DNA of 64,000 bases, from assembly GCA_042563095.1 (NCBI GenBank), contig JBHPMS010000002.1:5551-69550 (forward strand), read 5' to 3'. The notes under the pieces were generated by a model. It made no database searches. It had not been told where the DNA came from and saw nothing but the letters and a program-made list of their open reading frames with translations. The stretch is from Candidatus Margulisiibacteriota bacterium. GTDB taxonomy: Bacteria > Margulisbacteria > WOR-1 > XYC2-FULL-46-14. A program made the position numbers and the translations under genes. Shown here piece after piece: positions 1-59,212 of the stretch (the first letter of the stretch is position 1; every line of letters begins with the position of its first letter).

Positions 1-1200
1 GATACGACACTTCCGTACATCCAGGTTGTTCCATATCGCAGACCGGCCCTTACTTCATAGTTTGAATCTGGCAGGAGCCCTGAACGGGTATAACTGTAAC
101 TGCCGGAACCCGATTGGGTAACAGTGCGTGCAGTTGTCCAGCTGGTTGCACCCTGTATACGGTATTGTAACCTGATACTGCCAGTTAAATAAGTCTTAAA
201 ATCGAAGGTACAGTTTAATGTTGCGCTGGCCGGCATTACATTTGTAACCGGGTCGGTAACAATAATTGGCATATCGGCCGCGGATCCAGTTGTAAATGTA
301 ACTATATCACCATAAATCCAGGTTGTTCCGTATCTTAAACGGGCGCGAACTTCATAATTTGTATCCGGAGTAAGTCCGCTGCGGGTATAGCTCCGCGTGC
401 CTGATCCAGATAAAGTGGCATTCCCTGCATTGGTCCAGGTGGTTACTCCAGAAATACGGTATTGAAAACCGACAATTCCGGAACTGTAAACCTTGAAATC
501 GTAGGTAGCATTAAATGTAGCACTGGCGGGTAAAATATCTGAAACTGGATCAGTTGCAATAGTTGGAACTTCTGCAGCTGAACCGGTTGTAAAAGCTACA
601 ATACTACCGTACATCCAGGTTGTTCCATATTGCAAACCGGCCCTTACTTCATAGTTTGAATCTGGCAGGAGCCCTGAACGGGTATAACTAAAAGAACCGG
701 CACCGGAGCGGGTTACAGTCCTAACAGTGGTCCAGCTGGGAGCTCCCTGTAATCTCATCTGAAATCTTAACCGCCCGGAAGAATAAGCAGCAAAATCATA
801 GGTCATGTTAAAAGTAGCGCTGGCGGGCATAATATCAGTAACTCCGTCAGTAGAAACGGTGGGTAAACCGCCCGCATCACCAGTATTAACCGGGACTATT
901 GCACCAGAAGACCATACTCCCAGATGCCTGATTTGTGCACGATAAACATAATTGGTTTCGGGATTTAAACCTGATCTGGTGTAAGCTCTGGTGCCGGACC
1001 CGGTTACATTTGCGCCCCCCATATTTGTCCAGGTGCTAACACTAACATCACGAAATTGGAATCTTACCCGGCAGGAAAAGCTAAGGCAGTCATATTTCAT
1101 ATTTAAAGTTGCACTGGCAGGTAAGACATTGGTTGGAGCTTTGGTAGTAACAATCGGTTCAGTATATATATGTACATGAGGATCAACTCGATTATCTAAA
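1..1200. repeat. Tandem 297-bp (99-codon) coding repeat, at least 4 copies; alternate copies are most similar (e.g. 11-100 vs 605-690 near-identical)
   Basis: Direct inspection: the block CCGTACATCCAGGTTGTTCCATAT...CCCTTACTTCATAGTTTGAATCTGGCAGGAGCCCTGAACGGGTATAACT recurs at about 11, about 308 (diverged) and about 605. The period is a multiple of 3 and the frame stays open. Confidence 0.8.
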
Positions 1201-1502
1201 TTATCATCTTCATACGGATCGCCCATCGGACATTTGGGTGCACCCTCTGGATAATAGTTGGTATCAGAATACAGCTCAGAAGGAGTTGGATACGTCGCCA
1301 GTCCACGGTTAACAAATTTTAATTCCAACTGTTCGTTTATTGATGCAACATTTGAATTACAACTGTTTTGCCTGGCATCATTTGATGATGCAACATAGCG
1401 TGGAATGGCAATTGATGAAAGGATACCAATACTAACCACCACGATCATAATTTCTATAATCGTAAATCCTGAACGTTTTCCCTTTTTAAATAAATTTCTA
1501 AT
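1..1502 (-). CDS. Type IV pilin-like protein with tandem FN3-like 99-aa repeats (3' end beyond window; start codon uncertain)
   Basis: The reverse complement is one open frame from about 1502 to position 1 with no stop. Because the stop lies off-window, the ORF track does not list it. The N-terminus reads ...KKGKRSG|FTIIEIMIVVVSIGILSSIAIP, a prepilin cleavage/methylation motif with Glu at +5. About 110 aa later there are at least 4 tandem 99-aa repeats (PASATxN..YDF....G...FQ.R..G...W......T.SGSG..SYTRSGL.PD.NYEVRA.L.YGTTW.YG) resembling fibronectin-III. There is no in-frame ATG/GTG/TTG between the upstream TAG and the motif. Candidate starts are ATT at 1502..1500 or ATG at 1448..1446. Confidence 0.6.
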   Translation of the reverse strand, partial: MRNLFKKGKRSGFTIIEIMIVVVSIGILSSIAIPRYVASSNDARQNSCNSNVASINEQLELKFVNRGLATYPTPSELYSDTNYYPEGAPKCPMGDPYEDDNLDNRVDPHVHIYTEPIVTTKAPTNVLPASATLNMKYDCLSFSCRVRFQFRDVSVSTWTNMGGANVTGSGTRAYTRSGLNPETNYVYRAQIRHLGVWSSGAIVPVNTGDAGGLPTVSTDGVTDIMPASATFNMTYDFAAYSSGRLRFQMRLQGAPSWTTVRTVTRSGAGSFSYTRSGLLPDSNYEVRAGLQYGTTWMYGSIVAFTTGSAAEVPTIATDPVSDILPASATFNATYDFKVYSSGIVGFQYRISGVTTWTNAGNATLSGSGTRSYTRSGLTPDTNYEVRARLRYGTTWIYGDIVTFTTGSAADMPIIVTDPVTNVMPASATLNCTFDFKTYLTGSIRLQYRIQGATSWTTARTVTQSGSGSYSYTRSGLLPDSNYEVRAGLRYGTTWMYGSVV

Positions 1503-1503
1503 G

Positions 1504-3078
1504 TTATGTTCCTGTGGTTTGCTGGTTAATGTATTCTAAAAACAGATCGAGATTAATATCAAATTTGTCCGGATGGTCAGCAAAGTAATGGTTCCACTCG
1601 CCCTCTGCATCTAACGCAATAGCATAAGGTAAATATTCTTTATATAAAGCATTATTTTTTGATGGAGGATTAAGGTTGGCAATACTTTTATCTTCGGCAC
1701 CGGCCAGGTAAATGTTAAAGCCATTAATTTTTGAAATAATTATATTTCCGGCAATTCCACCTGATTTTATTATACTTGCAAAAAAGAAGTTAATTGATAT
1801 AAGACACATCAAAATTAGCGGATTCCAGAACGAATAAAAGATAATGCCCAATCCAATTAAAGTTGACAATAAATAAACTGCAACTGAAAATAGTATCGCG
1901 GGCATGATGTATTTTAAAGAATAAATCATTAAAGCATTTCTACGGCTGGCTTTGATCGAATCCCTGATCTTATCTCTCAGGTCCTGTTTTCTGCTTTGCG
2001 AAATAGTATTAAGGCTAACGCTCTGGCCGACATTAAAAAGGGCCAGGGTCAATAGTTTTTCTTCCGGCAAAAGAAAGCTTTTACTAACTGCTTTTTTTTC
2101 TAAAACAAAATCGATGCTGCCCTCTTTTTCGGTTTGGTTTATCTTAATGCAATCTTTAACTGCCATATTTATAATAATTGCAGCAACAGACTTACTGTCA
2201 AGGAGTTTAGTTATAAAAAAACGGGCCATAGCAGGATAAATTTTTGCCGGCGGCTCAAAGCCGGGGGATATTTTGTGTTGTTTAATCCTCAGGCGGACTG
2301 TAAATAAAATTATTACATAATATGCTAATAATAAAATAATGCCAAGCAAACCAATAAATGTTCCAAGATTGTCTTTTAAGAGCCGCTGGTAGATTGCTCC
2401 CTGCCCGCTCTCTTTTATAATTCCTTTTGGCCAGCGCAGCAAAACCGCATAACTGCATTTTGGCGGGAGCGGATCAGAAAAAGAAAAATAAAACTTACCT
2501 GCATCCTTGGAAGCTTCAAAGTTTTTCACCTCATCACCGGAGGGGGCCTTAAAAGCTTTAGCGAGTAAAAGTTTTTCAGTGATTCCGACCGGAACACTAA
2601 TTTCTGTATCAACATGACCAACCGGATATTCCCAGTCGCTTCCGCTAACTTCGAGAATTATTTCATCAAAACTTTCGCGGTAATTTATTTGCCCGGTGGT
2701 GCGGTAAGTTAGTTTATAAACATATTCATCCGGTGCAATTAAAATGTCTTTGCTGCCCAAAAATGCCCTTTTCCCTTTTGGGATATTTTCGATCCAAAAA
2801 TCAATTAATTCTCCATCGCGTGTTACAGAAATAACTTCAAATTTTCTAACATGGTTGAACCCGTATTGATCAACTGTATTTGTAATGAAGTCGCGGTGGA
2901 TTCCAGAAATTGTCTGATCCTGTTTTATGTCGGCTTTAATTGTTTCGGTGACTACAATTGAGCGGTCAAATCCGAGGGAAGATTCGCTATCAAATGATAG
3001 AATTTTTTCTTCTTGTGCCAGGCTAAATTGTAACATTGAAACAAAAAGTATAAAAATATATGCTATTAGCTTTTTCAT
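1504..3078 (-). CDS. Membrane protein with N-terminal signal peptide, extracytoplasmic domain and C-terminal TM bundle (DUF2207-like)
   Basis: 524 aa. The N-terminus MKKLIAYIFILFVSMLQFSLA looks like a signal peptide and there are multiple hydrophobic segments in the C-terminal half. Architecture recalled as DUF2207-like. Confidence 0.4.
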   Translation of the reverse strand: MKKLIAYIFILFVSMLQFSLAQEEKILSFDSESSLGFDRSIVVTETIKADIKQDQTISGIHRDFITNTVDQYGFNHVRKFEVISVTRDGELIDFWIENIPKGKRAFLGSKDILIAPDEYVYKLTYRTTGQINYRESFDEIILEVSGSDWEYPVGHVDTEISVPVGITEKLLLAKAFKAPSGDEVKNFEASKDAGKFYFSFSDPLPPKCSYAVLLRWPKGIIKESGQGAIYQRLLKDNLGTFIGLLGIILLLAYYVIILFTVRLRIKQHKISPGFEPPAKIYPAMARFFITKLLDSKSVAAIIINMAVKDCIKINQTEKEGSIDFVLEKKAVSKSFLLPEEKLLTLALFNVGQSVSLNTISQSRKQDLRDKIRDSIKASRRNALMIYSLKYIMPAILFSVAVYLLSTLIGLGIIFYSFWNPLILMCLISINFFFASIIKSGGIAGNIIISKINGFNIYLAGAEDKSIANLNPPSKNNALYKEYLPYAIALDAEGEWNHYFADHPDKFDINLDLFLEYINQQTTGT

Positions 3079-14591: not shown

Positions 14592-15287
14592 TTAAAGCGC
14601 TCTTGAAAGAGCTAGTATTTGGACTGATTTTGCACCGGCACTTTTTAATTCGGAGGTGCATTCCCGAACGGTTGACCCGGTAGTTAAGATATCATCTATC
14701 AACAGAATATTTTTTTCTTTTATGAGAGGACTGCCTTTAATCTCAAAAGCACCTTTGATGTTGTGGTAGCGTTCCCTTTTCTTTAAATCAAATTGAGGAT
14801 GAGTATTTTTTTTCCTGAATAAAACACCAGCTACGGTTGGAAGATTTAATGTTTTGGTAATATTTAAACAGAGCAATTCTGACTGGTTAAAACCTCTCTC
14901 CTGCAACCTTTTTTCATGCAAAGGGACCGGTATTAAGAGGTCGATCGACTTTTTCCAGAGGTGATGATTAATATAATTTGACATTAAGAGGGACAATGGT
15001 TTGGCTAAACGTCCTCGTTTTTTAAATTTGAACCTTTTTATCGATTTTTTTAAAACCCCTTCATATTCCCCCACCGCATTGATGAAGGCAGCCGGTTTTA
15101 GGTAGCTTATTTTTGAAAGGCATTTTTTGCAAATCGGTTCATTAACAAAGGTGAAGCAGGTCTCACACTTTGGCGGAAAGATAAGATCTAAGATTGATTC
15201 AAATATTATGCTCATACTATTATTATACCATCCCGCTCTGGAGCAAAATTCCTTGATTTTATAAGATAGATATGTTATCTTACTCAC
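14592..15287 (-). CDS. comFC: ComF-family phosphoribosyltransferase (ComFC-like)
   Basis: N-terminal Cys pairs CETC...CKKC, and a PRTase motif ILLIDDILTTGSTV. Confidence 0.75.
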   Translation of the reverse strand: MSKITYLSYKIKEFCSRAGWYNNSMSIIFESILDLIFPPKCETCFTFVNEPICKKCLSKISYLKPAAFINAVGEYEGVLKKSIKRFKFKKRGRLAKPLSLLMSNYINHHLWKKSIDLLIPVPLHEKRLQERGFNQSELLCLNITKTLNLPTVAGVLFRKKNTHPQFDLKKRERYHNIKGAFEIKGSPLIKEKNILLIDDILTTGSTVRECTSELKSAGAKSVQILALSRAL

Positions 15288-22475: not shown

Positions 22476-24986
22476 ATGAGTAGATTAGCAAATGTAGGAC
22501 TCGAGAAATTTGGTGGTAGTAAACTGGGACAACAGCAATTAAAATTTATACATAAACATCAACAGAGTGGGGCCATGACAACCGTTAGGCAACAATCTGA
22601 TTTAAGAAGGACTTTTCTAGAAAATGTTGCTGCAAACCATCCTGCCGGGATTCCTGTGATGTTGTTTAATCTTAAAAATCCATATGAGCAGACAATTATA
22701 TTAGATTCAAAGAAACTAGAAAAATACAATATCGATCAGTATTTTGCAGATTTTAAAAGATTGGCTCCCAAGGCAACAGCCGGACTAAGAGAAACTTATG
22801 ATGTATTAAATTGGAATAACCCAAATTATTTGTATAATCCAGTATTTTTAACACTATTAATAGAAGCTGAAGCTAGATTTATTAAAGAACAACATACTGT
22901 CAAGTCAGAAATGTTAAAAGGAATTGATCTATCTGCAAAGGCGGCGGAAGTAGAAAAGGAATTATCACCTAATACTATATCTACAATAAGAGAAGTGTTT
23001 GAAGGAAAGAGCCTGGTTGAAATATTGAAACTTTTAAGAGATAAACCAATGAAGGTTATGGGGAAAGAAGTTAGACCTCAAACTGATCAGATGCTTGAGC
23101 TGGAAGTACGACTAATGGCTGAAAACGGGATCGCCGTCATTACATCGGAAAAATTTAGCGATACCACAAATATATACCTCACATCTTTCCTCTGCTTTTT
23201 ATTGGGATCAGATGGTGGTACTTATTACACCCCAAGTCATAGTTCAGTTTATGTGCTTGGGAGAAAGGTTCTTTCTCAAGAAGGAGCCCAATTATTGCCG
23301 GAGCTTTATAACCGCTTTATTGAGATACTAGAAGAAATAATTGGAGTTGCAAAAGATAAAGGACTGATGGTTAGTCTTGGAGCAAGAGGGGGCGAAAATA
23401 TTTACAATACTTTGTCATATGAGAGGACTGCAAAATTATTTGCAAAAGCAATGAATCATGATCCAAAAACCATTGATATGATTAATGAAGCAGCAGATAA
23501 AGGACTTAGAATAACACTTAATACCCTATCCGGAAGTGCTGCAAAAAGTTTAGCTTCTCAATTAGTAGCATTTGGAGTTGACAAAAAAGTATTTCAACCA
23601 TTATGGGAAAAAGAAGATTCCTATTTTAATGCCGGTTATGTTGCTGGCTTTAAAGATGGAGAATATTTTGTTGATCATTTAGGAGTTGATACTTCGGCTC
23701 CAAAAGTTGTACAGCAAATTCCTTATGCAGAAAAACTCAAAAATGCACCAATTGGTCGAATGGTCTACGAGTGTGATCCGGATAATGATCGCTTTTTAGT
23801 TAAACAGGTCTTAGCAGAGGATGCGATCCCGCTTTGTGAAGTATATGGGATAGATTATTATAAGCTGGGGAATGGTAGAATTTTGGTTGCCCCAAGCCCT
23901 AATAAAATATTTTTAATGCTGGATATTGCCGATTATGAAAGGATGAAGGCTTCAGGTGAATGGGAGAAATATCATTTCTTATATTTCCCAACCTATGTCT
24001 CATCAGCTGCCTGGGTTGAATTTGCAAATTATTTGGCAAGAAAAGAAGGAAATATCTCAACCTTCTTATGCCGGGTTGGATTTAAAAACTTTAATCAGGC
24101 CTTAACCCAAATTCAGGATTGGTGGTTTAATAGACCGGAGGAACCAACTCTTACAATTAAACCTCAATTGGGGGATCCTATTACCCTTAACCGGGACAAA
24201 CCATTACGAGTCCTAAGTAAAGAAGAAGAAAGTGGCGGAAGAACAGCTGGCCAGGCAGCAGCATTAACTAATATTCTTGGTGAAAGGATGCTTTCATTGC
24301 CAGAAAAAGCTGTTGGAGATGCCTTGATGGCACATCTGGCTGATATGGCAAGAAGATATCTGGAGAAGCAGGAATTACGTTTACCAAGTATAATTGATAC
24401 TGCTTATACAAAATATCAATTAATATCTAAAATTGACTATCGCTTGGATATTCTTCATGGTGACCAGGGTATCATTGCACAGGTTGGTCCAGAAAAAGCA
24501 GCAAAATTAAAATCACAGGCTGGTGCAGAAAAAGCCAACTTTAATAACTTTTTCTTTTCATTGGGTATTGCAGAACAAACAGCAAAACTAAGCCTTGATA
24601 AAATAAGGGGTATTTTAAAAGCAGTGCTCCCTGAATGGTCTGATACCTGGAATTGCCTGGACAGTATTCAATATGTAGAAGAAGAGTTAACCGCTACTCA
24701 AACACGACCGGAGGGAGTGGTGATGTCATTTAATGCTAAGGATGGAAAAACTCCTTTGGTGACTAAATTTAAATTCAGGCCTTCCGGCACAGATCCCTTA
24801 AAGAGTAAAGTCTATATTGATGCTGTTGTATTAAGAATGGAACAAATAAGAGAAATTGAAGACCGCAATAATCACCTAAAACGCCTTGATCTTTATGGTG
24901 TACTTGATCATTACGGGATAGAATATGCAGAAGCTAAACCAGCTGAAGCAGGTCAGATTGAATTAAGACCAGTAGCGTTAAATTAG
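22476..24986 (+). CDS. Atypically long (836 aa) alpha-D-phosphohexomutase-superfamily protein (phosphoglucomutase-like)
   Basis: The four ordered PGM/PMM motifs are recognisable. They are the phosphoserine loop YYTPSHSS (compare TASHNP), the metal loop ECDPDNDRF (DGDGDR), the sugar loop EEESGG (GEESGG) and the phosphate loop RPSGTDP (RPSGTEP). It lies between pfkA and pgi. Confidence 0.55.
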   Translation: MSRLANVGLEKFGGSKLGQQQLKFIHKHQQSGAMTTVRQQSDLRRTFLENVAANHPAGIPVMLFNLKNPYEQTIILDSKKLEKYNIDQYFADFKRLAPKATAGLRETYDVLNWNNPNYLYNPVFLTLLIEAEARFIKEQHTVKSEMLKGIDLSAKAAEVEKELSPNTISTIREVFEGKSLVEILKLLRDKPMKVMGKEVRPQTDQMLELEVRLMAENGIAVITSEKFSDTTNIYLTSFLCFLLGSDGGTYYTPSHSSVYVLGRKVLSQEGAQLLPELYNRFIEILEEIIGVAKDKGLMVSLGARGGENIYNTLSYERTAKLFAKAMNHDPKTIDMINEAADKGLRITLNTLSGSAAKSLASQLVAFGVDKKVFQPLWEKEDSYFNAGYVAGFKDGEYFVDHLGVDTSAPKVVQQIPYAEKLKNAPIGRMVYECDPDNDRFLVKQVLAEDAIPLCEVYGIDYYKLGNGRILVAPSPNKIFLMLDIADYERMKASGEWEKYHFLYFPTYVSSAAWVEFANYLARKEGNISTFLCRVGFKNFNQALTQIQDWWFNRPEEPTLTIKPQLGDPITLNRDKPLRVLSKEEESGGRTAGQAAALTNILGERMLSLPEKAVGDALMAHLADMARRYLEKQELRLPSIIDTAYTKYQLISKIDYRLDILHGDQGIIAQVGPEKAAKLKSQAGAEKANFNNFFFSLGIAEQTAKLSLDKIRGILKAVLPEWSDTWNCLDSIQYVEEELTATQTRPEGVVMSFNAKDGKTPLVTKFKFRPSGTDPLKSKVYIDAVVLRMEQIREIEDRNNHLKRLDLYGVLDHYGIEYAEAKPAEAGQIELRPVALN

Positions 24987-43772: not shown

Positions 43773-45131
43773 GTGGCAAAAATGAGTAAAAACAAACCGA
43801 ATGTGTTAGTTATAGATGATGAAGAGAATATGTTGTTAACCTATAAATCAATTCTAAAAAAGAAGTACAATACGGTATTAGTTAACCGAGGACAAGCGGG
43901 AATAGATAAGGTAAATGAGCAAGAATTTGCAGCAGTAATTGTTGACCTAAAAATGCCAGACATGGATGGACTAGAGGTATTACGTAAAATAAAAGAGATC
44001 AATCCAGATCAAAATGTGGTTATGTCCACGGCTATGAATGATGCAAAAATTGCAATCCAGGCGATCCGTAATGGAGCTCTTGAGTATATAACCAAACCAT
44101 TTGAAATTGATGAATTAGTTGCACTGATGGATAAGGTTATGGAAAGGAATAATCTAATAAAAGAGAACTCGTATCTTAAGACAGTTTTACAGGAACAAAA
44201 AACCTATTTTGACCTGATCGGACAAACCCAGGTAATGCAAAATATTTTTATGACAATTGAAAACATCAGTGCTGCAGACAGCACCGTCTTAATCACCGGT
44301 GAATCCGGAACCGGTAAGGAGTTAGTGGCTCACGCCATTCACAATAAAAGCAACCGCAAGGCCCGGCCATTTGTAATTGTTAATTGTGCAGCTATCCCAG
44401 AAAATTTGCTCGAATCAGAACTGTTTGGCCACGAAAGAGGTGCTTTTACCGGTGCTTTGGAGCGAAAAATTGGTAAATTTGAACTGGCCGATGGCGGTAC
44501 AATATTTTTGGACGAGATCGGTTGTATGCCGCTGTCAATGCAGTCAAAACTATTACGGATCGTACAGGATAGTAAGATTAGCAGAGTGGGCGGCAAAAAT
44601 CCGATCGAAGTTGATGTCCGGATATTAGCTGCTACAAATGCAAATATCGAGACTGAGATCAAGAAAGGTAATTTTAGAGAAGACCTTTTTTACCGGCTAA
44701 ACGTAATCCCAATAAAACTCCCCCCGTTAAGGGAGAGAAAAAATGATATTCCTCTTTTTGTCAGCTACTTTCTTAATAAATTCAACCGCGATCTCAAAAA
44801 AGCTATTAAAACAATCAGCCCTGACGCAATCAGATCACTTTTGGAATACAATTGGCCCGGGAATGTAAGGGAGTTGCAAAACCTGATTGAGCGGGCAGTA
44901 GCATTAAATGGGAACAAAGATGTCATTGATAGTATCCAGGTCAGTACTTCTTCAAAATCAGAAGATTCGAAAAGAAAAAAAAATTTGAAAGAAGCTACTG
45001 CTGAATTTGAAAAAGAATACATCAAAAGTGCGTTAAAAACTGTTAATGGCAACCAATCGGCAGCTGCGCGCTTATTAGAAATTCACCGGACTACCCTGAT
45101 CTCAAAAATGGAACTGCTCGGTTTAAAATAA
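43773..45131 (+). CDS. Sigma-54-dependent response regulator (NtrC family: REC-AAA+-Fis HTH)
   Basis: REC domain (VLVIDDE...D at VDLKMPDMDG), Walker A GESGTGKE, the GAFTGA motif (ERGAFTGAL) and a C-terminal HTH. Confidence 0.9.
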   Translation: MAKMSKNKPNVLVIDDEENMLLTYKSILKKKYNTVLVNRGQAGIDKVNEQEFAAVIVDLKMPDMDGLEVLRKIKEINPDQNVVMSTAMNDAKIAIQAIRNGALEYITKPFEIDELVALMDKVMERNNLIKENSYLKTVLQEQKTYFDLIGQTQVMQNIFMTIENISAADSTVLITGESGTGKELVAHAIHNKSNRKARPFVIVNCAAIPENLLESELFGHERGAFTGALERKIGKFELADGGTIFLDEIGCMPLSMQSKLLRIVQDSKISRVGGKNPIEVDVRILAATNANIETEIKKGNFREDLFYRLNVIPIKLPPLRERKNDIPLFVSYFLNKFNRDLKKAIKTISPDAIRSLLEYNWPGNVRELQNLIERAVALNGNKDVIDSIQVSTSSKSEDSKRKKNLKEATAEFEKEYIKSALKTVNGNQSAAARLLEIHRTTLISKMELLGLK

Positions 45132-46160
45132 AAGTGTAAAGCGAGTCCCCTCTCCAACCTTTGATTTTACCTGAACGTCACCAGCATGTTCTTTAATAAT
45201 CTTGTAAGTAATCGCAAGCCCCAGCCCGGTTCCACTAGTTTTAGTAGAAAAGAAAGGATCAAAGATATTCTTTATCTTATCCTCTGGAATCCCCAGTCCG
45301 TTATCAAGTATATCAATCTTTACTTTTTCAGCTGCCTTTGAAGTTTTCACTTCTAGCTTACCCCCTTTTGGCATGGCCTGAATCGCATTTAATATGAAAT
45401 TGGTCATAACTTGCTTTATCTGCTGTTGGTCTAGATCCCGATTGGGGACCTCTCCCAGTTTCTTTTCTAATTTAATCCCTTTTTTCATCATTTCTGATTC
45501 AAAAAGTTTTAAAACGTGTTCTAATACTTCATTAATATTAAGTGGAGCTTTTTGCGGTGTTGGTGGCTTTGAATAAGTCAACAAATTTTGGACCAGCTTG
45601 TTGATCCGATCTAACTCTTTTGGCACGACCTTTTTAAAATCTTCCAGGGATTCTTTATCGTTATCCTTGATTGCACTTTCCAGTATCTGGGTCATCCCTT
45701 TGATTGACGCTAAAGGATTTTTGATCTCGTGTGCCATTCCGGCTGCAACTGTTCCAAGTGATGCCAATTTATCAGCATGGAGCAGGCGGGCCTGGGCCTC
45801 CATCATTTCTTCATGCAATTGTGCTTTCTGTATTGCAATAGCTAATTGATTAGAAAGGGTGTTTAAAAAAATCAAATCCTCTTCATCATACATCTCTTCA
45901 TCTTCTTTTGGGCCAAGCGTGAACAGGCCAATCATCTTTTCTTCGGTATTTAGCGGAACGCAAACTTCGCCCCCTGCCTTTTTAAGTTCATCCCATGCCC
46001 TGGTGTCTGGCCCTAGGCTCAACTCTTCAAGCAGAAATGCCCGCTTAGTCTTTTTTAAACACTCAACCAGTGCACTATCCTTTTTTATAATATTACTTCC
46101 TATTTCTAACACTAGCTGCTCCTCTAAAGTGATAATAGCACGCAAGTATTTTAACTGCAA
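45123..46160 (-). CDS. Cytoplasmic sensor histidine kinase (HisKA + HATPase_c)
   Basis: H-box AHEIKNPL, and an ATP lid DNGLGIPEDK...GTGLGLAI. There is no TM segment. It is convergent with, and overlaps, the NtrC-like regulator. Confidence 0.85.
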   Translation of the reverse strand: MQLKYLRAIITLEEQLVLEIGSNIIKKDSALVECLKKTKRAFLLEELSLGPDTRAWDELKKAGGEVCVPLNTEEKMIGLFTLGPKEDEEMYDEEDLIFLNTLSNQLAIAIQKAQLHEEMMEAQARLLHADKLASLGTVAAGMAHEIKNPLASIKGMTQILESAIKDNDKESLEDFKKVVPKELDRINKLVQNLLTYSKPPTPQKAPLNINEVLEHVLKLFESEMMKKGIKLEKKLGEVPNRDLDQQQIKQVMTNFILNAIQAMPKGGKLEVKTSKAAEKVKIDILDNGLGIPEDKIKNIFDPFFSTKTSGTGLGLAITYKIIKEHAGDVQVKSKVGEGTRFTLLF

Positions 46161-46191
46161 TCACGATAATAATAGTAAGGGTGATTTAAAT

Positions 46192-46260
46192 ATGCAAATA
46201 GAATATCTGGCAATTGGAATGATGATTGTGATTTGTGTTGCATTATTAGGGAGAGGTTAA
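46192..46260 (+). CDS. 22-aa hydrophobic micro-protein MQIEYLAIGMMIVICVALLGRG
   Basis: ATG preceded by AAGGGTGA. It is a single predicted TM helix. It is the first of two tandem small ORFs in the gap between the HK and the pilin operon. Confidence 0.3.
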   Translation: MQIEYLAIGMMIVICVALLGRG

Positions 46261-46283
46261 TAAAGTTAGGAGGTGGTTATTAG

Positions 46284-46352
46284 ATGCAAGCCCATTTTGC
46301 CTTCTTATTAGTTGCGATCATTTTCGGTTTCATGTTGTACAGTATCAAGTAA
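46284..46352 (+). CDS. 22-aa hydrophobic micro-protein MQAHFAFLLVAIIFGFMLYSIK
   Basis: A perfect SD AGGAGGTGG lies 7 nt upstream of the ATG. It is a single predicted TM helix. Confidence 0.35.
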   Translation: MQAHFAFLLVAIIFGFMLYSIK

Positions 46353-46354
46353 TG

Positions 46355-46690
46355 TTAATGTAAATGAGGATCAATTCGTTTATTATTATCTAAGTCTAGA
46401 TATGGAGTTGCATAAGGACAAACCGGCGCCCCCCTGGGAAAATAAACCTTACTGGCTTTTAATTCTTCTAAATCTGGATATTTTTGCCTCCCTTCAAATA
46501 AAAAAAAGCGTTCCCATTGCGCATTAATATTTTGAACATTTGCGTTACAAGTTCTCTGCTTTGCATGAGTAACAACGGTGGCATAATATAATAATCCAAT
46601 TGCCGCAATTGATAAAACAATTGCCATCGTGATTGAAAATTCAGCTAAGGTTATTGCTTGTTTAGATTTTATTTTGACGCAATACTTCAT
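46355..46690 (-). CDS. Pilin/pseudopilin-like protein with non-canonical prepilin motif
   Basis: 111 aa. ...KSKQA|ITLAEFSITMAIVLSIAAIGLL has Ala at -1 and Glu at +5. Downstream, AKQRTCNANVQNINAQ is homologous to ARQNSCNSNVASINEQ of the pilin at 1..1502. Confidence 0.5.
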   Translation of the reverse strand: MKYCVKIKSKQAITLAEFSITMAIVLSIAAIGLLYYATVVTHAKQRTCNANVQNINAQWERFFLFEGRQKYPDLEELKASKVYFPRGAPVCPYATPYLDLDNNKRIDPHLH

Positions 46691-50405: not shown

Positions 50406-50916
50406 GATATTAAAAACCGGAGGAGTGATTATTTTCCCAACTGACACAGTCTACGGCATTGGTTGTGCGTATGATAATAAAGCAGGGATTGAGCGAATTT
50501 ATGAGATAAAGAAAAGACCGAAATATAAACCACTACAGATATTAATTTCAGATATTAAACAACTCGATGCTCTGGCAGCCGAAATCCCGGCTGCAGCTCA
50601 AGAATTGATGGAGAAGTATTGGCCGGGAGCGTTGACCCTGATACTCAAGACTAAGGGCCAAAGACTAAACACAATCGGGATCAGGATGCCAAATCATCCT
50701 ATTCCTTTACAAATAATAAAAGAACTCGGGAAACCATTAGCGGCAACCTCGGCCAATCTTTCCGGAGAGCCAGATCCCTCCTCCCCGGCTGAGATAACAA
50801 TAAAGGCTGATTATTTAATTGATGCTGGAAAGATTGAAAATCCACAAGCCTCCTCGGTGATTGATGTGACCTGTAATCCTCCAAAAATCCTCAGAAAAGG
50901 CCGGATCAAAATTTAA
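50365..50916 (+). CDS. tsaC: L-threonylcarbamoyladenylate synthase TsaC/YrdC
   Basis: IIFPTDTVYGIGC...KYWPGALTLIL...TSANLSGEP. Confidence 0.8.
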   Translation: MQESIESQLKESVRILKTGGVIIFPTDTVYGIGCAYDNKAGIERIYEIKKRPKYKPLQILISDIKQLDALAAEIPAAAQELMEKYWPGALTLILKTKGQRLNTIGIRMPNHPIPLQIIKELGKPLAATSANLSGEPDPSSPAEITIKADYLIDAGKIENPQASSVIDVTCNPPKILRKGRIKI

Positions 50917-50917
50917 A

Positions 50918-51085
50918 CTGAAATTTTTAGATTTATAGCAAGATAAATATGCGGGAATGGAGAAGGAGAAAAGGGTTTAAATAAATGTTTGGAACTGGAC
51001 CAATAACGTTAGCTGCAAGAATAAAAAGCAGTATTTGCCATAGCAACTACAAAGAAGGCGCTGGGGCTAATCCTCCAAAGCAAGG
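50918..51085. repeat. Direct repeat copy 1 (promoter region + RBS + first 28 codons), near-identical to 52225..52392
   Basis: CAAGATAAATATGCGGGAATGGAGAAGGAGAAAAGGGTTTAAATAAATGTTTGGAACTGGACCAATAACGTTAGCTGCAAGAATAAAAAGCAGTATTTGCCATAGCAACTACAAAGAAGGCG... has only a few mismatches against copy 2. Confidence 0.85.
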
Positions 51086-51530
51086 ATATTCTCTTCAGAT
51101 TGAGCATATTGAAAGCTTACGAGGAAAAGACTTTAGATTTGACCAGCTACGCAGAACCGCACTGGCAGAACTTATTATTAAACGAACTTTGATAGTTGAT
51201 GATGATCTGCTCGTTAGCAAATCAACTATGAGAATATTGAAATTGATCCTAAAAGATGCAGAAGTTGAAATAATAACCTGCGATCAGAATGAAGTTGATG
51301 AACATCTTAAGACCCAATTCGATCTGTTAATTACTGATTACGAAATGCCTGGAATGAATGGAGATGAAGTGATTAGAAAATACAAGGAATCAGGACAGGG
51401 AGGACTTATAATTGGCCATAGCGGGGATAGTGACAATCTTGACTTTTTTTATAAGGCAGGAGCAGACCTGGCCGGCGTAAAACCACTTTCGGTTAGTTTT
51501 TGGAAAAAGATATTCGGGTCAAGAGATTAA
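50985..51530 (+). CDS. Single-domain response regulator (CheY-like REC) with a 70-aa N-terminal leader (gene A of the REC operon)
   Basis: REC residues are intact: LIVDDD, phospho-acceptor DLLITDYEMPGMNG, IIGHSGD and GVKP. The N-terminal MFGTGPITLAARIKSSICHSNYKEGAGA is shared with gene C. Confidence 0.7.
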   Translation: MFGTGPITLAARIKSSICHSNYKEGAGANPPKQGYSLQIEHIESLRGKDFRFDQLRRTALAELIIKRTLIVDDDLLVSKSTMRILKLILKDAEVEIITCDQNEVDEHLKTQFDLLITDYEMPGMNGDEVIRKYKESGQGGLIIGHSGDSDNLDFFYKAGADLAGVKPLSVSFWKKIFGSRD

Positions 51531-51535
51531 GGAAG

Positions 51536-52201
51536 ATGTTATTCATAAGCGGGATCAGATACGGAATAACTGCTCAAAGGGTTAAACTTAGTCTTTTTAA
51601 AACCAGTCATTATTGTCCTTCACAATACGATAAGTGGTCTTTTCTGGGCAAACGGCAGAAGGTAAACGGCACCAACCACTATGTTATAGACAATATTCCG
51701 TTATTTGCAGAAAACAGCCGGCAAACAATCAAACAAATATCCAGAGACTTGCTATGGAGAACAACGTTTTTACTCCACTGCCAAAAAAAACATTTTTTTA
51801 TTAATCAAGGAAAACTTACAAATAGCGGAAAATTTGAGCTAGCCAATAAAGCCGCTAATTTGTTTTGTCCCTTAAAAATACCAGGAATCCCAAAAAGCAG
51901 TTCAATTTCTGAAGTCATTGAGGAGTTGTCTGAAGGATTAGAGCGTCAAATTGAAGCAGAGATTTTCAATTATCTGCTTAAGAAATTTCGGACTGTTTTT
52001 GGGGAAAAAACAGAAATAAGTAATATTCTAGCAATTGAAAAGGATGAAAAAGATATTTACTTTCTTCTTGAATTATCTTCTGATAATAAGGGCCTCCATC
52101 AGCATCGTTTTAAACTGGGCAATAATCATGGAATATTTTTTAGACTAACCTTAAATGAACAAAATCATAGTCTGCGACTGGATCAGGATAAAAAAATCTA
52201 G
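51536..52201 (+). CDS. Hypothetical protein (gene B), no recognisable motifs
   Basis: ATG 6 nt after gene A's stop, with an AAGGAAG RBS. 221 aa. Confidence 0.45.
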   Translation: MLFISGIRYGITAQRVKLSLFKTSHYCPSQYDKWSFLGKRQKVNGTNHYVIDNIPLFAENSRQTIKQISRDLLWRTTFLLHCQKKHFFINQGKLTNSGKFELANKAANLFCPLKIPGIPKSSSISEVIEELSEGLERQIEAEIFNYLLKKFRTVFGEKTEISNILAIEKDEKDIYFLLELSSDNKGLHQHRFKLGNNHGIFFRLTLNEQNHSLRLDQDKKI

Positions 52202-52224
52202 TTTTTCTTTTCCACTGTTTTTAC

Positions 52225-52392
52225 CTGAAATTTTTCTGATTTGTACAAGATAAATATGCGGCAATGGAGAAGGAGAAAAGGGGGTTAAATAAATGTTCAG
52301 AACCGGACCAACAACGTTAGCTGCAAGAATAAAAAGCAGTATTTGCCATAGCAACTTCAAAGAAGGCGGTGGAGCTAAGCCTGCAGCAAGGG
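52225..52392. repeat. Direct repeat copy 2
   Basis: See copy 1. The offset is 1307-1308 bp. Confidence 0.85.
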
Positions 52393-53483
52393 TATTCTTG
52401 GCTGATGCACATGGCGGGTATGAAATCAAAAAGGCGGTCGTTCTGGATAATGAAGTTGCATTTCAATCCGAAGCGCGGAGTATTTTGGCCCCCTATATTA
52501 AAGTGAACTGTTATGACTGTGATGCTGTAATGGAGGCCGCTGAATCCGGAAAGTCTGAAAACTGTCTCTATTTTATTAGCATTGATTTATTACTCGAAAA
52601 AAAAATTAATCTCAGTAAAAAAATTAAAGAACTCCGTAAACATTGGGGAAATAGCTCATACCTCATTGGCTTATCATCACGCAGTCCCCAATCATTAACA
52701 AGAGAAATCATTAAAGCAGGTTTTGATAGAATTATTAAAAAAATTGATTTCTCACAATCTGTTAAAAATGCTTTAAAGAATTGCCATGTTATCGATATGG
52801 GAGGAATTACTCCTGATCAGGTAATTGAGGAGCCAGTTTTAGTAAGGCATGATTCGGCAGACCCCCCCAGCATCTTCGCACGACCGATTACAACAAAAGC
52901 CTGCCAAATAACAGCAAAACAAAAAGAAAACAAAACAGTATATTTATATAAACTGGCGAGCGAAAAGGGGAAAAGCAGCAAGGCAAATGCCCCGCCTCCT
53001 ATAGAGGGGACAGTAGAATTTGAAAAATATAGTTCGAATCATGGTCTGGCAAACCGAATTCTTATTATAAGCCCGCCATCCGATAATAATTTAAGAAAAC
53101 AACTTAAACGAAGGTTTTCATTTGAACTTGGGAAAACTTTAAATGAAATCACCTTAACCCTGCTTGATTCGGCGGAGGAGCAGAAAGTAAATATCGTTTA
53201 TACTAATACCACAGATGAGTTAACGGGAGTTGTTTATCAGTTATCTTATGAGGAACGGCTGCCTGAGGTAATATTTGTCTATTCTAACCCCACTGTCGAA
53301 ATAAGCGGAACAGAAATGGTTAAACGTATCCGTGAATTAAAGAAGGAATGTTATATAATTGGCGTTGCTAAATGTCAAACCGACCCGGTCAAATTTTACA
53401 ATGCTGGAGCAGACCAAACCATATTCGAAGATAAGCTGCCTGAATTTATTAGACGTTTCTTTGTTGAAAAAAAGGAAGAGTAA
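52293..53483 (+). CDS. Leader-REC-linker-pseudoREC protein (gene C)
   Basis: It has the same 28-aa N-terminus as gene A. The REC at about residues 45-165 is VVLDNE...YFISIDLLL...LSS...IIKKI. The C-terminal REC-like fold has Tyr in place of the acceptor Asp (EVIFVYSNPTVEISGTEMVKRIRE...FEDKLP). Confidence 0.6.
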   Translation: MFRTGPTTLAARIKSSICHSNFKEGGGAKPAARVFLADAHGGYEIKKAVVLDNEVAFQSEARSILAPYIKVNCYDCDAVMEAAESGKSENCLYFISIDLLLEKKINLSKKIKELRKHWGNSSYLIGLSSRSPQSLTREIIKAGFDRIIKKIDFSQSVKNALKNCHVIDMGGITPDQVIEEPVLVRHDSADPPSIFARPITTKACQITAKQKENKTVYLYKLASEKGKSSKANAPPPIEGTVEFEKYSSNHGLANRILIISPPSDNNLRKQLKRRFSFELGKTLNEITLTLLDSAEEQKVNIVYTNTTDELTGVVYQLSYEERLPEVIFVYSNPTVEISGTEMVKRIRELKKECYIIGVAKCQTDPVKFYNAGADQTIFEDKLPEFIRRFFVEKKEE

Positions 53484-53484
53484 T

Positions 53485-55062
53485 ATGCATTTAAGATTAG
53501 GAAAGGTTGTTAGAACAAGTGCTTTTTTTATACCTGCTGATGGGAATGGCGGGGAGTTTGGAAAGGGAGGATTAAAATCAACTAAACCTGCTCAGCTTCC
53601 CAGCGATGTAATTGTACCAATCAAATCAGAAGCCCATTCTGAGTTTGTTGACAGCCTTAGTATTACAGATGATATAACAAAATTACCAACTAAGGTCCTT
53701 CCCCTAGATATAAGAAATAACATTGCCAAAGAAGAATGTAATATTAGAAGGATAATACATCAAATAGTAACTGGATACTACTCGAATGAATCCTATTCTA
53801 CTATAAAGCACCTACTAGAATTGGGTGCCGGAAAAGATATATCAGATTTATTTGGAAGAATATCTATAACCAGAATAAACTATGGCCGTGTTGTAGGAGA
53901 TGTGGCTTTTTTACTTAACACTGCTGAGTGTGAAAAGATAATTGGGGCTGGCAAAGCAAAACTACAAAAAATGAGAGATGAATCGGAGATCAAGCTGAGA
54001 GCACAAGCAGCCAAGGTTTCCACTGCAGCGCCGTTTAAAACTAGAGTAGAAGAAATAATTCAATTCTGGCTGGATATCGGTAAACCACAAAATGTTTCAT
54101 TAATAAATAGCATTTTTAGCAATAATGATAAAGCTGCAGCAAAAAATGAGTTTATATTATTTTTAAAGAATGAAAAGATGCTCCGATTCCAAATAGAATT
54201 GGGTGCTGATCAAGAGAAATTCAATTGCTTTTCTAAACTTAATGATTTAGTAATAAGTTATGCCAGATGGATACAGGATCCAAAAAGTACCATACCCTAT
54301 ATCACAGCAACTATCGAACGAAGCCATTTCAGATGGGTACAAGGCCTTAAAAGCATCAAACCCAGTATTGAAGCTACAATTGGGCATTTTAAAGATTATT
54401 TCGATATGCTTGATAATTTGGTAGGCGAGAGCAAAAATAATTATAGTAATGAATTCGACAAAGAAGAGCTAGAACGTATTATAATTAATACCAAAATGGC
54501 CACAAAAACAATTTATCATTATTCTGCGAATGAAGACAAAGCCCGAATCGTTTCATTTCTAATGGACCACTTTTCTGCCAATTTTGGAAATAGAAAATCA
54601 GCCGACATCGCCCTGGAAATAGTGGAAGAGATCTCAAAACAAGAGCAAGCAACTGTTCTCAGCCACATTATTGACCACCTTGGTGATAGAAAGGATGACT
54701 TTGTAATTTTGCTAGCAAACATTGTAACCAGTAAAAACACAGACGTTTCTTCCCCTGCTATTACTAACATACTTGCCACAATAATTCCAATTCACCCAGA
54801 TACAGCGAAGGATTATTTGCGAATACTCTGTTCTAAGATATTTGGCCCAAATAGAATATTGGATTTTCTTGAAAACCAACACCCCCTTTTCTGGCAAAAT
54901 ATAATTGACAGATTAAAAAATGGAGACACCTGTGTTGTAGTTAAATATTTGCAAGCATTTCACACTAATTATCAAGAGCATTCAAACGAAGATAATAGTA
55001 CTACATATGCCGGTGTATTTAATCTGAATAAAAAGGATTATATAACTATAATAAGAGGTTAA
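53485..55062 (+). CDS. Hypothetical 525-aa protein (gene D), predicted all-alpha, no motifs
   Basis: ATG 1 nt after gene C's stop with an AAAGGAAG RBS. The track ORF starts upstream in another part of gene C. Confidence 0.45.
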   Translation: MHLRLGKVVRTSAFFIPADGNGGEFGKGGLKSTKPAQLPSDVIVPIKSEAHSEFVDSLSITDDITKLPTKVLPLDIRNNIAKEECNIRRIIHQIVTGYYSNESYSTIKHLLELGAGKDISDLFGRISITRINYGRVVGDVAFLLNTAECEKIIGAGKAKLQKMRDESEIKLRAQAAKVSTAAPFKTRVEEIIQFWLDIGKPQNVSLINSIFSNNDKAAAKNEFILFLKNEKMLRFQIELGADQEKFNCFSKLNDLVISYARWIQDPKSTIPYITATIERSHFRWVQGLKSIKPSIEATIGHFKDYFDMLDNLVGESKNNYSNEFDKEELERIIINTKMATKTIYHYSANEDKARIVSFLMDHFSANFGNRKSADIALEIVEEISKQEQATVLSHIIDHLGDRKDDFVILLANIVTSKNTDVSSPAITNILATIIPIHPDTAKDYLRILCSKIFGPNRILDFLENQHPLFWQNIIDRLKNGDTCVVVKYLQAFHTNYQEHSNEDNSTTYAGVFNLNKKDYITIIRG

Positions 55063-55065
55063 ACC

Positions 55066-56729: not shown

Positions 56730-57431
56730 TTATTCGCTATCCCTCATCAATTTGAGCAGAAAAATCGTCTCATCTAAAAGCTTTTGCTTAACCCAGACTT
56801 TCTGCTTTTTATCTAACAGCTCACCAATACCGGATAAAATATTACGGCTGCTCATTTTGGAGAGTAGGTCAATGCATTCTTCAAGAAACTTTTTAAAAGT
56901 CTTTTTTACACGTTGTTCTACCAGTTCTTTGTTAATCGGCCAATTGTTATTGAAGAAAAACCAGACATCATAAATATCGCGGTTGGTCCTTCCAATCCTC
57001 TCATACATCGCAACCAATTTCTGAGCCGCCATATCCGGTTTGACCATTACCTTCATCGAAATACCAAGATAGGCCTTAACTTCATAACTTGATCCAAAGG
57101 CTCTGCGGTTTATCTCAACTTTAATATTCTGCGCGCCTTTTTCTTTATCTTTATAAGAGAGCAGAAAAAAAAGATTAAACCTTTTCTTTTCTGCTTTTTT
57201 TACGGAGCCGTAGCTTTCCAAAATCTTTCTGATCCGCTCAAAGATAACCTGCTCCCTACCCTTATCCAGCAGATCAAAATCAAGATCGACCGAAAAGCGG
57301 CTGAGATTATAAAAAAGATATGCAGCTGTGCCTCCCTTAAAACCCAAAAGCGGACCAACTGTTGTGTCAGTAAAAATATCTTTTAGGATCCTGATCAGAA
57401 GATTTTTATGCTTTGATATATCAAGTGACAT
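56730..57431 (-). CDS. abiEii: Nucleotidyltransferase toxin AbiEii (DUF1814)
   Basis: LLGFKGGTAAYLFYNLSRFSVDLDFD, a polymerase-beta-like NTase motif. Confidence 0.8.
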   Translation of the reverse strand: MSLDISKHKNLLIRILKDIFTDTTVGPLLGFKGGTAAYLFYNLSRFSVDLDFDLLDKGREQVIFERIRKILESYGSVKKAEKKRFNLFFLLSYKDKEKGAQNIKVEINRRAFGSSYEVKAYLGISMKVMVKPDMAAQKLVAMYERIGRTNRDIYDVWFFFNNNWPINKELVEQRVKKTFKKFLEECIDLLSKMSSRNILSGIGELLDKKQKVWVKQKLLDETIFLLKLMRDSE

Positions 57432-57996
57432 TTTTTTGATACCTACTAACTATTTGAGCCATACGTTTGTTGCCATCGTAGGTCGGCAGAATTTCTTGTA
57501 CCCGCTCCCAATTTATAGCTGAAAGATTATCAAAGTGATAATCCTGATTCAAATAAAGTAGATCCAAAAACGCCCTCTCCGAAGACGCAATGCTGTAGTT
57601 ATCCATTATCTTGATGCCAGCACTATTTGTTAATATCGGAGCTTTAACCGTCTTATAGTTGTAAGTCTGTCCGTCACAAACAATGTCCTTAGACTGATAT
57701 GAAGCCACAAATATTTGGCTGTAATATTGGAAAATAATGCCGGCCTTTGTTAAAACAGTCTCAAAACTTATATATGATGGTGTATATATTTTGGTGGCAA
57801 GCTCGAATTTATCATATTTTTTATCTTTTGCATACAATCCCCGCCGAATAGAATAAAGACCACCGTGTTTTGTGTAGTAATTTGCTCTGGCCTTTGCTGT
57901 TTTTTTATCGATATTCCCCCAAAGTAAAATGAGGTCCTTAAAAGAAAAAACAGTTTTATCTGACCTTAATAATTGGTTTAAAAATCCTCTTTCCAT
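57421..57996 (-). CDS. abiEi: AbiEi-like antitoxin/transcriptional regulator
   Basis: 191 aa, immediately upstream of and overlapping AbiEii. The size and arrangement are typical of type IV AbiE. Confidence 0.65.
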   Translation of the reverse strand: MERGFLNQLLRSDKTVFSFKDLILLWGNIDKKTAKARANYYTKHGGLYSIRRGLYAKDKKYDKFELATKIYTPSYISFETVLTKAGIIFQYYSQIFVASYQSKDIVCDGQTYNYKTVKAPILTNSAGIKIMDNYSIASSERAFLDLLYLNQDYHFDNLSAINWERVQEILPTYDGNKRMAQIVSRYQKNVT

Positions 57997-58056: not shown

Positions 58057-58085
58057 CCTAAAAACTCAACGCCACCTCGTAGAAT
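58057..58085. repeat. Right 29-bp direct repeat (authentic OMP 3' end)
   Basis: See 56699..56727. Confidence 0.75.
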
Positions 58086-59212
58086 TGAGTCTCCTCCACC
58101 TGCCCCGTAGCCGGATTATAAGCTTTGCGATAATGCGTAATTACTTTTGTAAACGGATTGACGTAATAACCGATCTTGGCACCCATCACCGCCCCATTTT
58201 CTAAGGTTAAAGAATTAAAATCAACAAAGTTTGGCTGCTGATAATAAGCGGACACTTCGATATCTTCTCTTAAATACGATTCAGCCAGTGCTGCAATTGC
58301 ACCATTGCCCCCATTATAGTTTTCATAAGAAATGTCTAAGTTCAATACTTTTGGCAGCTTTGCTTTAAAATCAGCAAAATAACCATCACGGCGAATACCC
58401 TGGGCGGCAACTGAACTTATGTCGGTCGGATTGATCTCATATTCCTCATTAAAATAACCAGGAACAAAATTCCCTCCCACAAAACGGTATCCAGTATCAA
58501 ATGCAGCAACAAAGCCGAGCATTTGGGTTGACCAATCAATACCAACTGAAGCTGCTTTCCCGTGATTATTTAACTGAGCCGCCTCAGCATAACCTTCAAA
58601 CCCAAAAGGAAATGGGACCGTAGCATCAACTGCAATTCCTCCCTGTGGAGCGAAACTTCTGATTGTACCATCCGATTGTCTAACTTGTACACCATCCTCA
58701 TCAGTTACAAATGATTGACCTAAAATTAACATCGGATGGACTCTTTGCGTTAGACGGATTGCATAAACATGTGACCAGGTGTTCATAGCATGAAATCCGA
58801 AAATATTGTGGTTATAATAGCCTTTTAATCCCATCTGGTCATTATAACTAAGGCCAGGTAATGCAACTCGAGTAGCATAATTTTTCATCAACAAACCGTG
58901 CCCCAGAGTAATCCGATCCAGTATTCCATAACGCAAACCTTTCTGCCCATCATCATATTCGGCATAACGGAATACAACCGATTCATAATCTGCTGGGCGG
59001 ACATTTCCAAGCGGAACATTAACATCCAATCCTAAACCCAACGGACCAAGCTTGAGGTCCGGCCGCCATGACAAACTGCCTACCTCAACTGTTCCAGCTT
59101 TTACATACCCTGCACTAACGGTATTAGAAACTTTGTCAAACATACCAGCTTCGGCTGAAAATGACCAAGATGCAAGAAACAAGATACAAATAATTACCAA
59201 TATATTTTTCAT
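58058..59212 (-). CDS. Outer-membrane beta-barrel protein (porin-like), signal peptide and C-terminal Phe
   Basis: MKNILVIICILFLASWSFSAEA signal peptide, alternating amphipathic strands, and the protein ends ...YEVALSF. Confidence 0.55.
   Translation of the reverse strand: MKNILVIICILFLASWSFSAEAGMFDKVSNTVSAGYVKAGTVEVGSLSWRPDLKLGPLGLGLDVNVPLGNVRPADYESVVFRYAEYDDGQKGLRYGILDRITLGHGLLMKNYATRVALPGLSYNDQMGLKGYYNHNIFGFHAMNTWSHVYAIRLTQRVHPMLILGQSFVTDEDGVQVRQSDGTIRSFAPQGGIAVDATVPFPFGFEGYAEAAQLNNHGKAASVGIDWSTQMLGFVAAFDTGYRFVGGNFVPGYFNEEYEINPTDISSVAAQGIRRDGYFADFKAKLPKVLNLDISYENYNGGNGAIAALAESYLREDIEVSAYYQQPNFVDFNSLTLENGAVMGAKIGYYVNPFTKVITHYRKAYNPATGQVEETQFYEVALSF

Follow-up and report, generated by a model that had tools for sequence, protein, structure and literature searches.

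What does the minus strand encode at the left edge of a 64,000-nucleotide (nt) stretch of DNA from Candidatus Margulisiibacteriota bacterium, where a long open frame has neither a listed gene nor a canonical start codon? The stretch, referred to here as the window, comprises positions 5,551 to 69,550 of contig JBHPMS010000002.1 (assembly GCA_042563095.1). Read from position 1502 to position 1 on the minus strand, it holds one open frame of 500 codons, which opens with IRNLFKKGKRSGFTIIEIMIVVVSIGILSSIAIPRY and encodes, in this order, a prepilin leader, a pilin head of ~100 amino acids (aa) and a series of 99-aa fibronectin type III (FN3) repeats. We consider it probable, at roughly 0.6, that the product is a modular type IV pilin 605 aa long, which would be translated from an ATT codon and displayed at the filament tip as a low-abundance subunit.

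The gene is real, and the outline description given in a first-pass annotation, made from the letters of the window, is correct. Its label as an unlisted gene was an artefact of the program that listed open reading frames (ORFs), which omits ORFs running off the window and therefore has no entry at 1–1502. GenBank already holds the gene product as MFC1495860.1 (P0001; locus ACFL52_00410), a 'hypothetical protein' of 587 aa from Candidatus Margulisiibacteriota bacterium, retrieved at 100% identity in a protein search and known from a single 73.5-kb contig of a metagenome-assembled genome (MAG). This entry is shortened at its N-terminus: it begins MIVVVSIG..., corresponding to an internal ATG at 1448–1446 (feature 1446..1448, minus strand), which is Met19 of the frame and position +7 of the mature pilin, and it drops the leader, the cleavage site and Glu+5. 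Removal of the pilin signature by the Met19 start explains the label 'hypothetical protein'; the start itself is probably a gene-caller fallback, and recognising the hidden signature corrects the public annotation of MFC1495860.1. The GenBank protein also supplies the part of the gene past the window, namely the end of the fourth repeat, a fifth repeat ending ...LQFTTLP and the stop, ~318 nt beyond position 1. The repeats, which the first-pass annotation had put at a minimum of four, are real and number exactly five in the full protein before the stop, so the array is not open-ended, and the complete product from the ATT measures 605 aa.

The N-terminus carries the signal expected of a prepilin. 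With a slash marking the cleavage site, it reads IRNLFKKGKRSG/FTIIEIMIVVVSIGILSSIAIPRY (RNLFKKGKRSG/FTIIEI), with Gly−1, Phe+1 and Glu+5 in place. The class III (prepilin) leader of 12 residues, (M/I)RNLFKKGKRSG with Gly−1 at its end, occupies 1467..1502 on the minus strand and is defined by the frame translation, by the NCBIfam model for prepilin-type cleavage and methylation (TIGR02532) and by a family alignment. KKGKRSG/FTIIE matches 32 family members column for column, including the basic leader, Gly−1, Phe+1 and Glu+5, and the score against TIGR02532 (18.3) passes the cut-off of 16.3. Models for GspG, Myxococcus PilA and ComGC match partially, over the first 45–80 residues, and the equivalog cut-offs for ComGC (NF040999; 29 versus 75 bits) and GspG (TIGR01710; 39.1 versus 88.85) were missed.

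The mature pilin module (residues 13–111; 1170..1466, minus strand), delimited by phmmer, profile alignment and AlphaFold, comprises FTIIE, a hydrophobic α1 helix and a small ComGC/GspG-like head with C48, C91 and an H109-x-H111 end. A phmmer search with residues 1–113 against 1.84 billion cluster representatives (E ≤ 1e-3) matched 10,398 proteins, and nearly all of the best 150 are 100–135 aa long and end where the head ends. What the best relatives have in common is an initial M with a basic leader, GFTL(I/V)E and a hydrophobic helix, and the motifs A(K/R)xxxCxxN, NYFPDGxPxCP and RVxxHxH; the top ones are ~105–115 aa long and 41–53% identical. Their source names include 'prepilin-type...', 'general secretion pathway protein G' and 'competence protein ComGC', and their precomputed Pfam annotation gives N_methyl and ComGC_C; no usable match came from a word-indexed protein search when only the head was the query. 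Structurally, an AlphaFold model built on a 61-sequence alignment places a helix at residues 15–66 with a predicted local distance difference test score (pLDDT) of 81–93, followed by a small head made of helices with no β-sheet. The family profile matches α1 of solved pilins (Geobacter PilA, Myxococcus PilA, GspG and Thermus PilA5) at E = 1e-16 to 1e-9, so that the long hydrophobic N-terminal α1 helix of type IV pilins is recovered by model and profile alike. Leader, G/FTIIE, TIGR02532 and the α1 model agree with the initial description of a textbook prepilin N-terminus followed by a short pilin head, and the mini head of ~100 aa, ComGC/GspG-like and carrying FN3 modules, bears out the remark that this is no standard PilA. 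Across the mini-pilin family, two cysteines (C48 and C91), a glutamate (E60) and H109 are invariant and H111 is near-invariant; the cysteine pair and the H-x-H end could, from their conservation, be a disulfide plus a metal site.

A second gene in the window helps to delimit the head. The ORF at 46355..46690 (minus strand), already flagged as pilin-like in the first-pass annotation, starts with ATG and encodes a stand-alone mini-pilin of 111 aa ending in DPHLH. It aligns to the head without gaps over 106 aa at 35% identity (residues 6–111) and ends exactly at the head end, establishing it as a paralog of the head. Its class III signal is degenerate, with Ala−1 and Ile+1 while Glu+5 is kept, and the conserved Pro-Arg after the N-terminal part of α1 is lost; a Pfam scan of the paralog gave no match, N_methyl included.

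Beyond the head, a four-residue linker, IYTE (1158–1169, minus strand), joins the pilin module to the first FN3-like unit, and a direct-repeat family with a period of 297 nt underlies the 99-aa repeats. Unit 1 (residues 116–212; 867..1157, minus strand) is the most divergent, being recognised by repeat alignment and poorly modelled without an alignment, whereas unit 2 (residues 213–311; 570..866) and unit 3 (residues 312–410; 273..569), on the same strand, are each identified by Pfam fn3, AlphaFold and Foldseek. Unit 4 (1..272, minus strand) is cut by the window edge, its last nine codons lying beyond position 1 according to the unit boundaries and the GenBank protein. With a cut-off of 25 bits, Pfam fn3 (PF00041) scores 44.4 bits on the part within the window (E = 1.9e-11) and 48.8 bits on the complete protein. 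Units 2–3, as modelled by AlphaFold (pLDDT 95.8), form two β-sandwiches with 7–8 strands per unit, as in the FN3 fold, and the top 50 structures that Foldseek retrieved from the PDB have tandem FNIII domains or related Ig-like tandems, for example those of cytokine receptors. The best of these are all tandem FNIII structures, from Ihog, sDscam, DCC, fibronectin and titin, with 2ibg at E = 2e-9 and 1fnh at a TM-score of 0.58. A Foldseek search with a model of the head plus unit 1 returned noise (best E = 0.38), the unit 1 part of that model, computed without an alignment, being of low confidence. The initial suspicion of FN3-like repeats, for which structure prediction had been named as the check, is thereby confirmed. 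A hidden Markov model (HMM) of the five units found 44 similar units in other database matches, which are multi-FN3 surface proteins without pilin N-termini. Taken together, sequence and predicted structure support a protein in which a type IV pilin-like module (residues 1–111) is fused to five FN3 units, the arrangement by which modular pilins are defined.

How the array arose can be read from comparisons between its units. At the protein level, units 2–5 are mutually 50–71% identical and unit 1 is 42–50% identical to the others. At the DNA level, identity is 64–66% between adjacent units and 74% between units 2 and 4, well short of the near-identity that the first-pass annotation had ascribed to alternate repeats. 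The excess identity of units 2 and 4 stems entirely from a patch of 90 nt, at 597..686 (minus strand) in unit 2 and at 3–92 in unit 4, which is 94% identical and includes an exact run of 54 nt. Outside the patch, alternate units are no closer than adjacent ones: identity over the first 180 nt is 64% for units 2 and 4, 65% for units 3 and 4 and 59% for units 2 and 3, which contradicts the proposal that the array grew by duplication of a 594-bp double unit. Tandem Repeats Finder did not report the array, and the near-identical long tandem DNA repeats typical of recombination-prone genes were not found, the units being 59–74% identical; the single exact run of 54 nt is the only stretch able to support instability or length variation of the array. 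The 90-nt patch looks, by its sequence, like gene conversion, and judged from these comparisons the array is old and diverged, with one local conversion-like patch and no recent duplication of a 594-bp double unit. Differences between units fall mostly at third codon positions (for example 30/20/58 at the three positions for units 2 versus 3), as expected for a constrained, maintained coding sequence. The FN3 array (1–1157) has a G+C content of 46.5%, the pilin head (1158–1502) 36.5% and the whole window 40%; the higher value in the array may stem from its amino-acid composition or mean that the cargo is of foreign origin.

Is such an architecture new? The InterPro entry IPR003961 stands for fibronectin type III, and IPR012902 for the class III signal peptide of type IV pilins. 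Modular pilins were defined by Raynaud et al. (2021, PNAS; PMC8179133), who counted more than 1,200 of them in InterPro with 264 architectures and proposed that they are minor subunits located at the pilus tip, examples being PilB (pilin plus vWA) and PilC (pilin plus lectin) of Streptococcus sanguinis. Dataset S1 of that study lists 12 proteins of the form IPR012902–IPR003961, one with two copies of IPR003961 and two with three copies, plus mixed forms (PMC8179133). The census thus already contains pilins with one to three FN3 copies (PMC8179133), which removes the novelty implied by the decorated fibre of the first-pass annotation; the pilin–FN3 class is already known, from this census only, and is not conceptually new. 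Raynaud et al. (2021; PMC8179133) include no experimentally characterised modular pilin of the FN3 type. Our protein resembles their modular pilins in its class III signal, small pilin module, short linker and domains unrelated to pilus biology, and differs from them in its five FN3 units, its ~100-aa ComGC/GspG-like head, its origin in a Margulisiibacteriota MAG (presumably diderm) and its non-canonical start. What sets this case apart is its array of five units, its ComGC-like head, its phylum and its ATT codon, and the modular-pilin catalogue gains a member with five FN3 units from an uncultured sister phylum of Cyanobacteria.

Set against the ComGC/GspG mini-pilins, the head shares their leader, the G/FT(L/I)(I/V)E motif, the long α1, the tiny head and the conserved cysteine pair, but it bears a C-terminal extension of 490 aa that is absent from almost all of its best 150 relatives. 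The same head family does carry other cargo, with YD/RHS-like repeats in four proteins (P0099, P0151, P0152 and P0064) and a 190-aa domain of no known family in another (P0070). These five proteins are alike in grafting a C-terminal module onto the same mini head, and unlike ours in that their cargo is not FN3 and that they have ordinary ATG starts, with M plus leader. Such varied C-terminal cargo shows that the mini-pilin head, ComGC/GspG-like and ~105 aa long, is a recurrent carrier, used repeatedly for different modules such as FN3 and YD/RHS-like repeats.

Relatives of the head also indicate how the protein might be used. P0021, 47% identical to the head, is encoded in an operon of the order T2SSE(MshEN)–T2SSF–mini-pilin–minor pilins–LTD protein–PilM/PilN–secretin, which implies that, in diderm bacteria, a type IV filament machine takes its main subunit from the mini-pilin family. 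The closest family relative, P0019 (MFC1496472.1), is a 107-aa protein with a canonical leader, 53% identical to the head, and its accession number is near that of the target, which points to a probable origin in the same MAG; as the major subunit, it is a better candidate than the FN3 pilin. According to the mechanism we propose, the precursor would insert into the inner membrane via α1, a prepilin peptidase encoded elsewhere would cleave it after Gly12, and a type IV filament machine like that of the P0021 operon (T2SSE–T2SSF–pilin–minor pilins–PilMN–secretin) would take it up into a filament built mainly of the ~105-aa pilin. An FN3 domain is ~3.5 nm long, and the string of units, if extended, would measure ~15–20 nm. 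The stalk of this low-copy subunit would act at the filament tip, either as an adhesin or as a spacer. A tip position, an adhesive role and low abundance are the most likely properties of the protein, the position and the low abundance being suggested by the FN3 bulk, by the probably weak start and by the proposed standing of published modular pilins as minor, tip-located subunits.

The first-pass annotation had instead seen a decorated fibre, in which the protein would be the major subunit along the whole filament and each subunit would hold out a five-FN3 arm. That the head is closest to mini-pilins holding the major-pilin position in an operon, and that the extension is attached at the C-terminus of the head, would suit such a fibre. 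We nevertheless regard it as very improbable, given that P0019, with its canonical leader and probable origin in the same MAG, is the better major-subunit candidate, that a weak start codon points to low abundance, that passage of ~50 kDa of FN3 per subunit through the secretin would seem sterically implausible and that published modular pilins are minor subunits (PMC8179133).

The remaining part of the answer concerns the start of translation, the one unusual feature of the gene. An in-frame TAG lies 11 codons before the ATT at 1502–1500 (feature 1500..1502, minus strand), and between this stop and the cleavage site the ATT is the sole near-cognate codon and a putative non-canonical start: as had been noted at the outset, no ATG, GTG or TTG occurs there. 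The 100 nt preceding the cleavage site are free of all three codons whatever the frame, so a frameshift error cannot supply a start. The ATT falls in the Met1 column of a 34-sequence alignment with 32 family members, where Met1 is nearly invariant, and it aligns with the ATG of the paralog at 46355..46690. A Shine-Dalgarno-like 4-mer, AGGA (1510..1513, minus strand), stands 7 nt upstream, at a spacing like that of the AGGAGG-type sites of other window genes. On account of the family Met1 position and the AGGA, translation would most likely start at this ATT. Two public mini-pilin calls (P0150 and P0081) start at an internal Met of α1 despite a canonical upstream GTG or ATG and full leaders; these shortened relatives do have canonical starts, making the missing start here unusual in the family. 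Truncated pilin gene calls such as these two may be a recurrent annotation error.

Immediately upstream, a gene at 1504..3078 encoding DUF2207 N- and C-terminal domains ends with TAA at 1506–1504, one base before the ATT. A frameshift-caused fusion of the two genes was considered and rejected, since a prepilin signal must be N-terminal, the DUF2207 protein ends normally, at the profile end, and none of the frames offers a canonical start. The last part of the DUF2207 gene contains a candidate promoter for the pilin gene, the sigma-70-like TTGATA-18-TAGAAT (1533..1562, minus strand; 10 of 12 matches).

Three readings of the ATT have to be weighed: the codon may be a weak but genuine start, a start may recently have been lost, or the consensus may be in error. 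After a start loss, an ancestral ATG would have become ATT and the signal would go untranslated, leaving either a young pseudogene or a gene expressed from Met19, whose product would be an FN3 surface protein anchored in the membrane by its uncleaved hydrophobic N-terminus and not a pilin. Such a relic or repurposed gene would account for the lack of a canonical start upstream, for the choice of Met19 by PGAP, for the orphan position of the gene away from any pilus operon and for the absence of orthologs of this singleton protein in the collections searched, and the likewise degenerate signal of the paralog at 46355..46690 hints that selection on pilin genes has relaxed here. Yet the 18 codons before Met19 still encode a textbook leader and G/FTxxE in frame, the frame of 605 codons is intact, the repeats differ mostly at the third codon position, and AUU is a proven, weak bacterial start (10.1101/063800), preceded here by a Shine-Dalgarno-like site at the right distance; we hold a start loss to be unlikely.

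The third reading concerns the assembly itself, as the true codon could be ATG, the T at 1500 having come from faulty assembly or polishing or from a minority allele, and the gene could be that of an otherwise ordinary modular pilin. A single base separates ATT from ATG, the homologs all have ATG or GTG at exactly this position, and the source is a MAG with the locus on a single contig. Single-base consensus errors are generally rare in short-read assemblies, and no second copy of the locus was found for comparison in the genome and metagenome collections, and we consider this explanation quite improbable. An exact DNA pattern around the ATT, with the third base left as N, had no match in the genome and metagenome contig collections, and a back-translated search of both for orthologs of the pilin–FN3 fusion recovered only pilin N-termini (residues 98 and below).

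If the ATT is the genuine start, what would it do? In Escherichia coli, AUU initiates at ~1–2% of the AUG level, and infC and pcnB are the only confirmed natural AUU starts there (10.1101/063800). The gene described here resembles these two in having AUU at the start position, an upstream Shine-Dalgarno-like site and an expected low efficiency, and differs in that its ATT is a putative start only and that there is no sign of IF3-type autoregulation. A level of ~1–2% of AUG would fit a low-copy subunit. It is a tentative suggestion, and one we consider doubtful, that the ATT is a genuine selected AUU start by which synthesis of the bulky tip pilin is throttled through start-codon choice; initiation might then also be linked to the termination of DUF2207 translation 1 nt away, or respond to IF3. 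Were this true, the gene would be among very few natural AUU-initiated bacterial genes, and the codon would provide simple low-copy control for a tip subunit, with one five-FN3 adhesin per filament set against the abundant 107-aa major pilin, a natural case of pilus-tip stoichiometry set by a non-canonical start codon.

Several observations count against a tip-displayed modular pilin translated from the ATT. The score against Pfam N_methyl (PF07963; 17.3–20.0) is slightly too low for the cut-off of 21.2, and neither pilus machinery nor a prepilin peptidase was found among the scanned genes of the window. The AGGA 4-mer is weak evidence, lying within chance expectation, and sigma-70-like sites are no commoner here than in shuffled sequence, making the promoter candidate a lead only. 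No ortholog of the fusion was present in any collection searched, and the ATT may have arisen through loss of the start by mutation or through an error in the consensus. Finally, tip location, adhesion and low abundance derive from the architecture only.

The scanned genes of the window are mostly of housekeeping function. Near the pilin gene lie those for WecG, a pyruvyl transferase, DUF5693, RF2, SecA, HPF and a ComF-like protein, together with purS/purB/ispG/purC-like ORFs assigned from translations only; glycolysis genes and those for LigA, TruB and IF2 follow further along. The ComF-like gene (14592–15287, minus strand), which combines a phosphoribosyltransferase with a double zinc ribbon, adjoins hpf and secA and may be relevant if ComGC-like pilins serve DNA uptake. 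A literature search on Margulisbacteria pili returned nothing specific.

Around the mini-pilin paralog, which overlaps its upstream gene by 29 nt, the window encodes an NtrC-type sigma-54 activator (43773..45131, plus strand; GAFTGA in the translation) and an ORF that appears histidine kinase-like by translation (45123..46160, minus strand). This layout of activator, kinase and mini-pilin at 43773–46690 recalls pilS/pilR beside pilA. The strict sigma-54 pattern TGGCAC-N5-TTGC was not found upstream of either pilin gene.

Further along the window, a segment of ~170 nt is duplicated at 50912–51077 and 52219–52385 with 83–90% identity. It spans the upstream region, the ribosome-binding site and the first 30 codons of the ORFs at 50985..51530, a response-regulator receiver, and 52293..53483, which has no Pfam match, and the two N-termini are identical at 25 of 30 residues. 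Long ORFs without a Pfam match encode 836 aa (22476–24986), 233, 396, 567 and 545 aa (51500–56703) and 384 aa (58058–59212). A gene for a nucleotidyltransferase toxin of the AbiEii family lies at 56730..57431 (minus strand), and the ORF overlapping it on its upstream side (57421..57996, minus strand), without a Pfam match, is likely its antitoxin partner.

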